From assembly GCF_003334405.1 (NCBI RefSeq), contig NZ_QOWM01000003.1: a stretch of 64,000 nt of DNA; one strand, written 5' to 3'. The position numbers and the translations under genes were made by a program. Below the pieces are notes generated by a model. The model searched no databases. It worked only from the letters and a program-made list of their open reading frames with translations, and was not told where the DNA came from. Source of the DNA: Escherichia coli. GTDB taxonomy: Bacteria > Pseudomonadota > Gammaproteobacteria > Enterobacterales > Enterobacteriaceae. Each line of letters starts with the position of its first letter. The first letter of the stretch is position 1. Below, piece by piece: positions 52,754 through 55,700 of the stretch.

Positions 52754-52778
52754 GCGCCATCGTTAGATGGCGCTTTTT
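52754..52778 (+). terminator. terminator of ydcL, overlapping the tnpA stop; possible IS left-end hairpin
   Basis: GCGCCATC-gtta-GATGGCGC followed by TTTTT. Confidence 0.55.
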
Positions 52779-53269
52779 ATCCGGTGCGCCGTAAAACCCC
52801 ATCCTTCAGGGCGGGGATATAAGGCGCGGTTTTCCACCTGACCAGGTGTTTGCTGTTGTTCAATGTATTGGCGGATGACGGATATTGGCGCACCTCCGCA
52901 GCTACTGGCAAAATAGCCAGGACTCCACAAAACGCCTTTGTAGTAATACCTGAATGCAATATCTGGTCGATCTCGTCGCAGTCACCTACCCGATACGCCT
53001 TTGAGGCTGTTTACCAGACTGGATATCGCCAGTTTGGGAGGATAGTTAATTAACAAATGGACGTGATCTGGTTCGCCATCCATTTCAACCAGTTCAGCTT
53101 CAAAATCAGCACATACATTTGAAAAGTAAGTGCGTAGTTTTTCTGTCGCGTCATGGTCAAAAATCTGGCGTCGGTATCTGGTGACAAAGAGCAGGTGAAC
53201 ATGCATCAGGAAAACACAATGCCTTCCACGCCGGATATCGGTTTCTTTTTTCACAGACCAAAGTATCAT
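52763..53269 (-). pseudogene. insP: IS200/IS605-family Y1 transposase TnpA interrupted by a single in-frame TGA
   Basis: N-terminal 95 aa (HVHLLFVTRYRRQIF, HUH motif PDHVHLL) then TGA at 52982-52984, then same-frame continuation LRRDRPDIAFRYYYKGVLWSPGYFASSCGGAPISVIRQYIEQQ... to TAA 52763-52765. Confidence 0.75.
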
Positions 53270-53276
53270 TTGACCT

Positions 53277-54485
53277 GTGAAACGATTACAGGCATTTAAA
53301 TTCCAGTTAAGACCCGGTGGTCAACAGGAGTGTGAAATGAGGCGCTTCGCAGGCGCATGTCGTTTCGTTTTCAATCGTGCTCTGGCACGTCAGAATGAGA
53401 ATCATGAGGCCGGTAATAAATACATCCCTTACGGGAAAATGGCTTCCTGGCTGGTTGAGTGGAAAAATGCCACTGAAACGCAATGGCTTAAAGATTCTCC
53501 CTCACAGCCATTGCAACAGTCACTGAAAGACCTTGAGCGGGCTTACAAAAACTTCTTCCGGAAGCGGGCTGCTTTTCCCCGATTCAAAAAGCGGGGACAG
53601 AATGATGCATTCCGCTACCCGCAGGGCGTTAAGCTCGATCAGGAAAACAGCCGTATTTTTCTGCCGAAACTGGGCTGGATGCGCTACCGGAACAGCCGTC
53701 AGGTCACGGGTGTTGTGAAAAATGTCACTGTCAGCCAGTCCTGCGGTAAGTGGTACATCAGTATTCAGACAGAAAGTGAAGTATCAACTCCGGTTCACCC
53801 TTCAGCATCAATGGTCGGGCTGGATGCTGGCGTGGCTAAACTCGCCACGCTGTCAGATGGCACAGTCTTTGAGCCTGTAAACAGTTTTCAGAAAAACCAG
53901 AAGAAGCTGGCGAGACTTCAGCGACAGTTAAGCCGCAAGGTCAAATTCAGCAACAACTGGCAAAAGCAGAAACGCAAAATACAGCGACTGCATTCCTGTA
54001 TCGCAAATATCCGCAGGGACTACCTTCACAAAGTCACAACGGCCGTCAGCAAAAACCACGCAATGATAGTCATTGAGGATTTGAAGGTCAGCAACATGTC
54101 AAAGTCAGCAGCGGGTACGGTCAGCCAGCCGGGGCGCAATGTCCGGGCAAAATCAGGTTTAAACCGTTCGATACTGGATCAGGGCTGGTATGAAATGCGC
54201 CGCCAGCTTGCGTACAAGCAGCTCTGGCGTGGCGGTCAGGTGCTTGCTGTTCCGCCAGCGTATACAAGCCAGCGTTGCGCGTACTGTGGTCATACAGCGA
54301 AAGAGAACCGCCTGTCACAAAGTAAATTCAGATGCCAGGTATGTGGATATACAGCGAACGCCGATGTAAATGGCGCTCGCAACATTTTAGCGGCGGGGCA
54401 CGCCGTTCTTGCCTGTGGAGAGATGGTGCAGTCAGGCCGCCCGTTGAAGCAGGAACCCACCGAAATGATTCAGGCGACAGCCTGA
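53277..54485 (+). CDS. insQ: TnpB (OrfB) RuvC-like RNA-guided endonuclease of the IS200/IS605 family
   Basis: 402 aa from GTG 53277 (first ATG 53337 gives 382 aa); N-terminal motif [10 protein letters not shown]; RuvC-I VGLDAGV, RuvC-II IVIEDL, zinc finger CAYCGH...CQVCG, Ruv[13 protein letters not shown] all present. Confidence 0.85.
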
Positions 54486-54525
54486 ACGTAGCAGGGATCC
54501 ACGTCCTTCAGGGCGTGGAGGATGT
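54330..54525 (+). ncRNA. predicted omegaRNA (right-end RNA) of TnpB; extent approximate
   Basis: By analogy with characterised TnpB systems the guide RNA scaffold derives from the tnpB 3' end and the right-end hairpin (candidate stem TCCACG/CGTGGA 54500-54521); not directly demonstrable from sequence. Confidence 0.3.
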
Positions 54526-55700
54526 CAATATCGGTTTCTGTCAGCGATTAAATTCAACACCACGTAACAAACGCCTCCGGCAATTAATCCCCAAAACGCA
54601 GAACCAATCCCGACCAGCGTCAATCCACTTGCCGTTACCAGAAATGCCACCACCGCCGCGTCTCGCTCACGCTCATTATGCAGCGCCTGATACAAACTGC
54701 CGCCGATGGTACTTAACAGCGCCAGACCTGCCAGCATCTGGATCCAACTTACGGGCAGGGCAGCCATCATCCCGGTAATGGCACTACCAAACAGACCTGC
54801 GAGCAAATAGAAAATGCCTGCAACGGCAGCGGCCAGCCAACGTTGATCTTTATCCGGATGCGCTTCCGGGCTTTGGCAAATAGCCGCGGTGATTGCCGCA
54901 ATACCGACGGAATAAACGCCGAAAGGGGAAAAAACCAGTGCCAGCAATCCAGTAAATACAATTAATGGCGAAACAGGAGCCGAATATCCAGCTGCTTTCA
55001 TTGCTGCGATACCCGGTGCGTTTTGCGATGCCATCGTCACCAGAAAAAGGGGGAGTGCAACGCTCAGGCTGTGAGCAAACGAAAAATCAGGGGTAATATA
55101 AGTGGGGAGAACGGGTTTAAAGACAACATCAGTTGTGACAACGTCACCTTGCGCGATGACGATCACGATCCCAATAATCATCGCGGCAATTACCGCATAG
55201 CGCGGCGCAACGGCCTTGGTTGCCAGCCATACCAGCAACATACTTCCACACAACGTAAATTGACCGTCCAGACTGGCAAACGCCTGTAAACCAAAGCGTA
55301 ATAAAATCCCGGCAAGCATTGCCGCCGCAAGCGAGTGCGGAATAATGCGCATCAGACGAGCAAAGAGTCCCGTTATGCCGCAGAGGACTATTAGCGCGTT
55401 GGTGACAATAAAAACGCCGATGGCTTCGTTAAGTGTTAGTCCCTGCAATCCGGTGACCAACAAAGCCGCGCCAGGCGTTGACCATGCGGTGAGAACAGGT
55501 ACGCGATACCATAATGTCAGAGTCAGCGTACTGACGCCCATTGCCAGCCCCAGCGCCGTCATCCAGCCAGAGATTTGTGCAGTGGTGGCTCCGGCGACAA
55601 TCGCTGCTTGCCAGATTATTGCCGCTGAACTGGCGTAGCCAATTAATACCGCCAGAAACCCCGCCAGTAGCGTGGGTGGAGGAATAGAAAACAGACGCAT
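54525..55700 (-). CDS. ydcO: BenE-family (benzoate transporter-like) inner-membrane protein
   Basis: 391-aa form from ATG 55700 (MRLFSIPPPTLLAGFLAVLIGY...); polytopic membrane protein; ORF-track 478-aa version is an upstream extension. Confidence 0.85.
   Translation of the reverse strand: MRLFSIPPPTLLAGFLAVLIGYASSAAIIWQAAIVAGATTAQISGWMTALGLAMGVSTLTLTLWYRVPVLTAWSTPGAALLVTGLQGLTLNEAIGVFIVTNALIVLCGITGLFARLMRIIPHSLAAAMLAGILLRFGLQAFASLDGQFTLCGSMLLVWLATKAVAPRYAVIAAMIIGIVIVIAQGDVVTTDVVFKPVLPTYITPDFSFAHSLSVALPLFLVTMASQNAPGIAAMKAAGYSAPVSPLIVFTGLLALVFSPFGVYSVGIAAITAAICQSPEAHPDKDQRWLAAAVAGIFYLLAGLFGSAITGMMAALPVSWIQMLAGLALLSTIGGSLYQALHNERERDAAVVAFLVTASGLTLVGIGSAFWGLIAGGVCYVVLNLIADRNRY

Follow-up and report, generated by a model that had tools for sequence, protein, structure and literature searches.

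A copy of the insertion sequence (IS) IS609 in Escherichia coli, located at positions 52781 to 54528 of a 64,000-nucleotide (nt) stretch of DNA (assembly GCF_003334405.1, contig NZ_QOWM01000003.1; the whole stretch is referred to below as the window), combines an intact gene for the nuclease TnpB with a dead gene for the transposase TnpA. The 3′ end of tnpB and the adjoining right end (RE) of the element carry a conserved, predicted scaffold for the guide RNA of TnpB (omegaRNA), and the guide that would follow this scaffold specifies the ydcL-ydcO junction without the insertion as its only perfect target. The explanation of tnpB retention that we favor, with moderate confidence and provided that the protein is expressed, is a selfish anti-loss role such as that described for TnpB of the IS605 family. 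The assignment of the parts (a non-autonomous IS609, a predicted TnpB nuclease, a predicted omegaRNA scaffold, a transposon-associated motif [TAM], and a putative guide) is secure. The element, the gene, and the class of mechanism are already on record, and no new kind of system is described here; the dead transposase, the immobility, and the annotation of IS609 as encoding an RNA-guided nuclease have likewise been published or annotated before.

A non-autonomous IS609 copy with an intact tnpB gene

As judged from its sequence, tnpB (insQ/ydcM; 53277 to 54485, + strand) encodes a complete RuvC nuclease of 402 amino acids. The gene is intact according to the list of open reading frames (ORFs), RefSeq, Pfam, and an alignment with TnpB of ISDra2 from Deinococcus radiodurans (PDB 8BF8, 8EXA, and 8H1J), and its product is identical to InsQ of K-12 strain BW2952, with one synonymous nucleotide difference between the two genes. 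The architecture runs from an N-terminal helix-turn-helix (HTH)/WED-REC part (HTH_OrfB_IS605, PF12323, residues 1 to 48) through the OrfB_IS605 RuvC core (PF01385, residues 162 to 277) to a C-terminal zinc-ribbon TNB domain (Cas12f1-like TNB zinc ribbon, PF07282, residues 304 to 370), and the NCBIfam model guided_TnpB (NF040570) is matched at 379.8 bits (cutoff, 100). All three RuvC motifs are present: VGLDAGV (residues 180 to 186) with D183 (codon 53823 to 53825), IVIEDL (residues 264 to 269) with E267 (codon 54075 to 54077), and ADVNGARNI (residues 362 to 370) with D363 (codon 54363 to 54365). These three residues align with D191, E278, and D361 of ISDra2 TnpB (E = 1.9e-54, residues 3 to 376), and the two homologous proteins share the zinc ribbon as well as the D-E-D triad. 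In the window protein, the ribbon is formed by CAYC at residue 334 and CQVC at residue 353, with all four cysteines (C334, C337, C353, and C356) in place. A preliminary description of this region, made from its letters without database searches, had already reported three RuvC motifs and a CxxC...CxxC finger as intact, and the alignment bears this out. Among solved structures, ISDra2 TnpB is the nearest natural one; an AI-designed nuclease (9yyg) scores above it.

The same description had favored the GTG at 53277 as the start codon of tnpB. We also take this GTG as the start, because the HTH_OrfB_IS605 match at residues 1 to 48 covers model positions 1 to 47 of 47 and requires residues 1 to 20, because the alignment begins at TnpB residue 1 in 80 of 80 related loci, and because the homologous start codon in relatives is ATG (start-region alignment, 25 loci). 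A protein homologue search returned matches that were nearly all 97 to 100% identical and from E. coli, without diversity, and a search of genome contigs for related loci was used instead. One such locus (L014), on a 2,057-bp contig assigned to Streptomyces mutabilis JCM 4400 (NZ_BMTT01000064.1), holds an enterobacterial-type IS609-like element with 82% protein identity; it looks like assembly contamination and not like a true actinobacterial copy.

The start-region alignment of 25 loci also suggests a possible −10 box, TATCAT (53264 to 53269, + strand), 7 nt upstream of the GTG. Relatives (loci L005 to L035) have a perfect TATAAT ending 7 nt before the tnpB ATG, a spacing that suggests a leaderless tnpB mRNA in these relatives. 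IS609 copies in E. coli combine TATCAT with GTG, and a copy in Escherichia sp. (L004) combines TATAAT with GTG. On the opposite strand, the tnpA start codon is typically less than 20 bp away in relatives and 7 bp away in the E. coli copies. A scan for consensus sigma-70 promoters found none on the + strand upstream of tnpB.

The divergent tnpA gene (52838 to 53269, − strand), of the Y1 (HUH) transposase type, is a pseudogene, as seen by codon comparison with the intact TnpA of O157 and as flagged in RefSeq (“internal stop”). The window allele has one in-frame nonsense codon, at codon 96 (L96*, TTA to TGA, 52982 to 52984), and its natural stop codon has changed to CAG (52838 to 52840). A frameshift was ruled out, both ORF pieces lying in the same frame with one nonsense codon between them. 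L96* falls upstream of the region of the catalytic tyrosine, which leaves the gene without a functional Y1 (HUH) TnpA; the intact homologue of tnpA matches NF033573 (transpos_IS200). The earlier reading of an intact TnpB beside a dead TnpA thus holds, with an uninterrupted 402-residue ORF on one side and both L96* and a lost stop codon on the other, and this IS609 copy is non-autonomous, unable to move on its own. In earlier work, a stop codon was reported in “ynck,” the IS609 transposase gene (PMC2891674), and IS609, which is single copy in MG1655, showed no transposition in K-12 mutation-accumulation lines (PMC5009759).

The element lies in a chromosome segment closely resembling that of K-12, in the order tehA-tehB-ydcL-IS609-ydcO-sutR. 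On sequence identity it is IS609 of E. coli, a member of the IS200/IS605 family with the gene insQ/ydcM: it shares 99.9 to 100% of its sequence, and its position between ydcL and ydcO, with K-12 and related strains. In K-12 BW2952, RefSeq names the same 1209-nt coding sequence “insQ: RNA-guided endonuclease InsQ/TnpB family protein” and lists the divergent tnpA next to it as a pseudogene (“internal stop”). The window copy and the K-12 copy (insQ/ydcM, with the tnpA pseudogene “ynck”/insP) are therefore the same element and do not differ in kind, whereas the O157:H7 copy, located in a TetR gene near ytfB, has an intact TnpA.

The ends of the element follow from a comparison of the window with L002, a ydcL-ydcO site that is empty, and with copies located elsewhere. 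The left end (LE) occupies 52781 to 52837 (+ strand), and the RE consists of the 43 nt from 54486 to 54528 (+ strand), terminating in ...GGAGGATGTCAA. Across 19 enterobacterial copies, conservation runs through GTCAA and is followed at once by unrelated sequence. The preliminary description had ended the element at 54525, which we correct to 54528; the right-end hairpin, placed there around 54500 to 54522, is likewise corrected, its stem being formed by 54498 to 54506 and 54511 to 54519. The hallmarks of the IS200/IS605 family are present: both ends have subterminal hairpins (that of the LE at 52797 to 52816, + strand, CCCCATCC-TTCA-GGGCGGGG) with CC(N)TCC-TTCA-GGGCG in common, comparison of empty and occupied sites reveals no target duplication, and the insertion lies 3′ of a fixed tetranucleotide. 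In the window allele, the LE hairpin has an A·C stem mismatch at 52801, where O157 and two ydcL-ydcO alleles have G. A shared immobilizing mutation in the LE hairpin was ruled out, as this A/G position is polymorphic among ydcL-ydcO alleles. The O157 copy with the intact TnpA (L003) has a G-to-T mismatch in the terminal stem of the RE and omegaRNA, equivalent to window position 54515.

The insertion falls exactly on the ydcO stop codon. In empty genomes ydcO ends in CGA TAA; in occupied genomes its last codon, TAT, spans the RE boundary and is followed by a TGA that lies within the RE (54525 to 54527, − strand; ORF list, RefSeq coding sequence ends, and comparison of occupied with empty genomes), and the C terminus of YdcO changes from ...DRNR* to ...DRNRY*. 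On the ydcL side, the T run of the ydcL intrinsic terminator (52754 to 52773; GCGCCATCGTTAGATGGCGC followed by TTTTT) makes up the TTTAT target, and the insertion point is the U tract of this terminator.

The predicted omegaRNA scaffold, its guide, and its target

Covariation shows a conserved, predicted omegaRNA scaffold at the 3′ end of tnpB and the RE. A consensus structure was derived with RNAalifold from 19 enterobacterial copies, and a covariance model (R1) was built from it. The scaffold so predicted spans 150 nt with 44 base pairs (54379 to 54528, + strand; the 5′ boundary is uncertain) and is made up of the last 107 nt of tnpB and the 43-nt RE. The model matched at full length at the tnpB 3′ end in 72 of 72 related loci (58 to 97% protein identity) and only once in the window, at 54379 to 54528 on the + strand. 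In an alignment that was itself fitted to the covariance model, 95.6% of cells pair versus 42 to 53% in slid controls, with compensatory change at 28 of the 44 pairs; in a structure-blind MAFFT alignment, 97.8% pair versus 40 to 48% in controls, with nine compensatory pairs. Many G-U pairs in the scaffold are strand specific. We relied on this covariation because the single-sequence fold was uninformative (z-score = −1.74, not significant).

The overlap with tnpB has left a mark on the gene. Across 15 intact orthologs, synonymous-codon identity is 0.786 over codons 368 to 402, which overlap the RNA, versus 0.577 upstream, where all 333 windows of the same size stay below 0.786. The location is that of an omegaRNA: the predicted RNA is encoded on the tnpB strand, runs from the 3′ end of tnpB through the RE, and stops at the transposon boundary. 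A guide RNA scaffold derived from the tnpB 3′ end and the RE hairpin had been expected from the preliminary description, which proposed a covariance-model search; the 72 matching loci and single window match, the position of the RE boundary, and the suppressed synonymous change all uphold this expectation. A literature search returned no report tying insQ to a small RNA.

A closing helix joins 54382 to 54387 with 54520 to 54525, about 140 nt apart, and the scaffold further contains internal stems and a terminal hairpin. The latter is the 9-bp subterminal hairpin of the RE (54498 to 54519, + strand), with its UUCA loop at positions −22 to −19 from the guide. This helix (helix 8) shows compensatory changes, its loop is UUUA in relatives, and it probably serves both as the recognition hairpin for TnpA and as the last stem of the omegaRNA. 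Another predicted hairpin, upstream of the model at 54360 to 54374, had no compensatory support and was left out. The predicted omegaRNA of IS609 is arranged like that of ISDra2: each overlaps the RE as well as the 3′ end of tnpB, shows pairing between bases next to the guide and a segment far upstream, and has, some 20 nt ahead of the guide, a terminal hairpin whose loop reads UUNA. The ISDra2 omegaRNA has a pseudoknot between −5 to −3 and −105 to −103 and a UUUA tetraloop at −20 to −17 (PMC10097598). The two elements differ in their TAM (TTAT or TTAC in the IS609 family, TTGAT in ISDra2) and in the divergent arrangement of IS609 tnpA and tnpB, with start codons 7 bp apart, which is unlike that of ISDra2. 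The IS609 omegaRNA is also far enough from that of ISDra2 in sequence that no Rfam family reaches threshold, and the activity of the window copy is predicted.

In Rfam, where no family matched at its gathering threshold, the only matches were weak ones to HgcC, sot0042, and RAGATH-18. Those to sot0042 and HgcC (15.5 and 22.2 bits against gathering thresholds of 88 and 50) cover the terminal hairpin and neighboring stems, and membership in either curated family is ruled out by scores so far below threshold. In archaea, both families lie over the 3′ ends of IS1341/IS605 tnpB genes and would presumably be omegaRNA-type transcripts. The subthreshold match to RAGATH-18 (54412 to 54455; 25.4 bits, E = 0.11) spans the conserved CCUGUGGAG...GUUGAAGCAGGAA stem of the omegaRNA, which hints that the RAGATH-18 motif may be part of TnpB guide RNAs. 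At three of the related loci, tnpB has an internal stop codon (codon 52 in Serratia sp. DD3, L015; codon 3 in an Enterobacteriaceae metagenome-assembled genome [MAG], L016; and codon 355 in an Enterobacterales MAG, L022), and the omegaRNA match is full scoring despite the stop. Such loci may be remnants that retain only the guide RNA and could be served by a TnpB in trans.

When empty and occupied sites are compared, the tetranucleotide that abuts the LE on its 5′ side, TTAT (52777 to 52780, + strand; TTTAT if the T before it is counted), emerges as the insertion target and predicted TAM. The flank of 17 independent insertions of the family is TTAT or TTAC. A 2026 study that purified and assayed an “IS609”-type TnpB ortholog did so with TTAT as the TAM, as given in its Table S2 (PMC12781874). 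We infer the guide to be the first ~16 nt of the flank past the RE, TATCGGTTTCTGTCAG (54529 to 54544, + strand); it starts at 54529 because the RE ends with GTCAA at 54528, and its length of 16 nt was taken by analogy with ISDra2. These bases are antisense to the last ydcO codons, and the guide reads into the ydcO 3′ end as had been predicted earlier. The same bases are found in the empty allele, preceded by TTTAT, and are invariant across 12 alleles. The empty allele reads TTTAT|TATCGGTTTCTGTCAGCG, a TAM with a perfect guide match; in the occupied allele, GTCAA stands in place of the TAM. A search of the 64-kb window for the TAM plus guide found no target besides the locus itself. Inside the element, in the 5′ coding region of tnpA, 53236 to 53247 matches the first 12 nt of the predicted guide at 11 of 12 positions (TATCGGTTTCTT). 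This site was rejected as an off-target: it is preceded by CGGA, which is not a TAM, 0.28 such matches are expected, and the resemblance is probably due to chance.

Variation and selection across E. coli

Among 5,426 complete E. coli genomes, the ydcL-LE junction was present in 3,268, the RE-ydcO junction in 3,265, and the empty ydcL-ydcO site in 2,048; the insertion is found in about 60% of the genomes, and the site is empty in 38%. From the occupied genomes, 18 ydcL-ydcO alleles were sampled at even steps down the match rankings, and 12 of these were aligned. In all 18, tnpB was intact (402 amino acids) and tnpA was pseudogenized: no disruption was seen in tnpB versus at least six in tnpA, which at 432 bp is three times shorter. 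In the 12 aligned alleles, the 489 bp of LE and tnpA contained 26 variable sites and three indel events, and the 1,209 bp of tnpB contained 47 variable sites and no indel event. Three tnpA nonsense codons, E62*, Y76*, and L96* (window positions 53086, 53042, and 52982 to 52984; loci L084 to L100), occurred in separate allele groups, and tnpB had none. With disruptive events scattered randomly across the two genes, all six would be found in tnpA with a probability of about 4e-4; for the three indels only, over the 1,698 bp of LE, tnpA, and tnpB, this probability would be about 0.02, a conservative figure. Of the variable tnpB sites, 17 were synonymous and 30 nonsynonymous (omega about 0.5), a synonymous excess over the neutral expectation (binomial P = 0.02). 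Across alleles, the RE did not vary, nor did the guide or most of the omegaRNA. The allele comparison indicates that tnpB at ydcL-ydcO is not evolving neutrally and that the constraint on it is weak, and the check on neutrality across strains that the preliminary description had suggested thus came out against neutral evolution.

The nonsense alleles were counted in the 5,426 genomes with allele-specific 55-mers, which placed L96* in 2,729 genomes, Y76* in 1,026, and E62* in 719. The sum of these counts exceeds the number of occupied ydcL-ydcO sites, and Y76* is found not only there but also at DUF3251/nrdR (L100). Spread of the alleles from locus to locus or from genome to genome must therefore have occurred, which implies that trans-mobilization of the tnpA-dead element or gene conversion between copies contributes. 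Three independent tnpA knockouts at ydcL-ydcO can accordingly be taken as proof of selection only in tempered form, as their origins need not all be there. Elsewhere in E. coli, tnpB is intact and tnpA dead at DUF3251/nrdR, tnpB is intact and both tnpA and the LE are truncated at yhgE-hslO, and both genes are intact at TetR/ytfB in O157. In a previous scan of wastewater E. coli, insQ was listed as a gene “under positive selection” (PMC9110714), a listing compatible with the relaxed omega observed here.

Retention of tnpB without a transposase

In the selfish anti-loss explanation, the IS609 copy is immobile through its dead Y1 transposase gene, and tnpB, as judged from its sequence, still encodes a complete RuvC nuclease. 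The omegaRNA scaffold, the flank-derived guide, and the TTAT TAM would together specify the empty ydcL-ydcO junction, TTTAT|TATCGGTTTCTGTCAG, as the only perfect target, and the occupied allele would be protected because GTCAA replaces the TAM. TnpB would then cut any newly arising empty allele, after which either the element would be copied back in or the cell that lost it would die. Such empty alleles could arise in two ways, through excision in trans by TnpA of another IS609 copy or through recombination with DNA from the 38% of strains without the insertion. Because anti-loss activity of this kind is independent of a transposase in cis, it can explain how tnpB remains intact while tnpA decays, and because it explains retention, a host function need not be invoked. 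The finding of tnpB intact beside a dead tnpA at DUF3251/nrdR and yhgE-hslO also favors the anti-loss reading.

This explanation builds on published work, in which TnpB of the IS605 family cleaves the donor joint and recombination then restores the transposon, and in which tnpA is found nearby for only ~25% of tnpB genes (PMC10055086). IS609 shares with these donor-joint systems a guide and a TAM that specify the scarless empty site. It differs from them in that the TnpA of the window copy is dead in cis and that K-12 has no second copy. We infer for IS609 TnpB a role in retention without a transposase.

Several observations weigh against an anti-loss role. The GTG start, the TATCAT in place of the TATAAT of relatives, and the leaderless look of the gene may result in very low translation, and hence very low levels, of TnpB in E. 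coli. Some TnpB proteins, such as that of Helicobacter pylori IS608, are inactive in interference assays (PMC10055086). An omega of about 0.5 is a weak constraint, estimated from 12 to 18 alleles, and the indel contrast comes from three events. At TetR/ytfB, strains other than O157 have tnpB with an early stop codon or an 11-bp deletion, and at ydcL-ydcO itself tnpB is disrupted by an IS3 insertion in one strain and truncated in another (H1 and H25). IS609 is dispensable, as MDS42 derivatives without it exist (PMC2891674). Finally, the single IS609 copy of K-12 (PMC5009759) rules out excision in trans there, and a target could arise only via recombinational replacement.

Some of these observations would fit a decaying relic, that is, a nuclease gene without useful function or expression that is merely still unhit and whose apparent constraint stems from overlapping RNA and DNA signals, gene conversion between IS609 copies, or sampling. 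We regard this as the main rival, though an unlikely one. It is in keeping with the omega of about 0.5 and the many nonsynonymous polymorphisms, some of them at cysteines (C19R and C241R), with the GTG start and degenerate −10 box, with the disrupted tnpB copies of some strains, with the inactivity and dispensability of the element in K-12 (PMC5009759, PMC2891674), and with the listing of insQ as “positively selected” (PMC9110714), which fits relaxed constraint or a mixing of paralogs. A relic would, however, hardly be expected to show no frameshift or nonsense codon in 18 alleles of a 1,209-bp ORF next to a 432-bp tnpA with at least six independent disruptions, given a chance of about 4e-4 that all six strike the shorter gene (about 0.02 for indels only). 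The synonymous excess over neutral (P = 0.02) and the invariance of the guide, the RE, and most of the omegaRNA across alleles also speak against it.

Retention of the nuclease after loss of the transposase had been read in the preliminary description as a hint of a host-level function, for example, co-option of TnpB and its omegaRNA by E. coli as a barrier to incoming DNA or as a regulator. Exapted relatives of TnpB (TldR) provide a precedent, tnpB outlasts tnpA at several loci, and the insertion is old enough for 1 to 2% divergence among alleles. The window TnpB resembles TldR in being a TnpB-family protein that persists without a working transposase, but exapted relatives are nuclease-dead and have lost the transposon ends. 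Exaptation would be marked by loss of the nuclease residues and the ends and by a guide that targets a host promoter or gene, and none of these signs was found for the window TnpB. Unlike in TldR, the D-E-D triad is intact; the LE and RE, the TAM, and a guide matching the donor joint are what an ordinary IS would have; and the presence of the insertion varies within the species. As in the selfish donor-joint pattern, the one perfect target is the allele without the insertion, present in 38% of E. coli, and within the 64-kb window the TAM plus guide finds only the locus itself. The insertion is absent from that same 38% of strains, disrupted in some others, and deletable in MDS42 without reported harm (PMC2891674). 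As the selfish model already accounts for retention, the hint of a host-level function found no support, and we consider such a function very improbable. The name ydcM also appears in the literature on R-loops and Ter replication; a functional link was rejected, as the gene is only a quantitative PCR marker there.

It is scarcely credible that the locus acts instead as an antisense regulator, with a tnpB or omegaRNA transcript that leaves the RE and pairs with the 3′ end of the convergent ydcO mRNA. No intrinsic terminator is predicted on the + strand past the RE, the guide and the sequence read through beyond it complement the 3′ end of ydcO without a mismatch, and the RE contains the stop codon of ydcO. 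The same would hold for any convergent neighbor, however, and antisense control leaves unexplained the conservation of both the tnpB ORF and the omegaRNA scaffold at 72 loci with unrelated flanks. Neither antisense control of ydcO nor host exaptation has positive support in these data.

A further proposal, which we put forward tentatively and hold to be doubtful, is that selection keeps the immobilized TnpB-omegaRNA pair as a transposase-independent “allele addiction/homing” module. If this is true, the module would cut empty alleles that arrive through recombination with the 38% of strains without the insertion and so bias inheritance in the Ter region toward the occupied allele, and loss of TnpA would have been favored repeatedly, as in the three independent nonsense alleles found in hundreds to thousands of genomes each.

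The ydcL-ydcO locus offers a natural test case in the best-studied bacterium, a single-copy TnpB-omegaRNA whose transposase is dead. The only perfect target predicted for IS609 TnpB is a common alternative allele within the same species, and the nuclease gene is intact while the transposase has decayed by at least three independent routes. K-12 lends itself to testing whether TnpB, acting as an addiction or homing device, can keep a transposon in place when there is no transposase at all. In practical terms, E. coli K-12 hosts for TnpB and Cas12 assays carry an endogenous, predicted TnpB-omegaRNA pair with a TTAT TAM.

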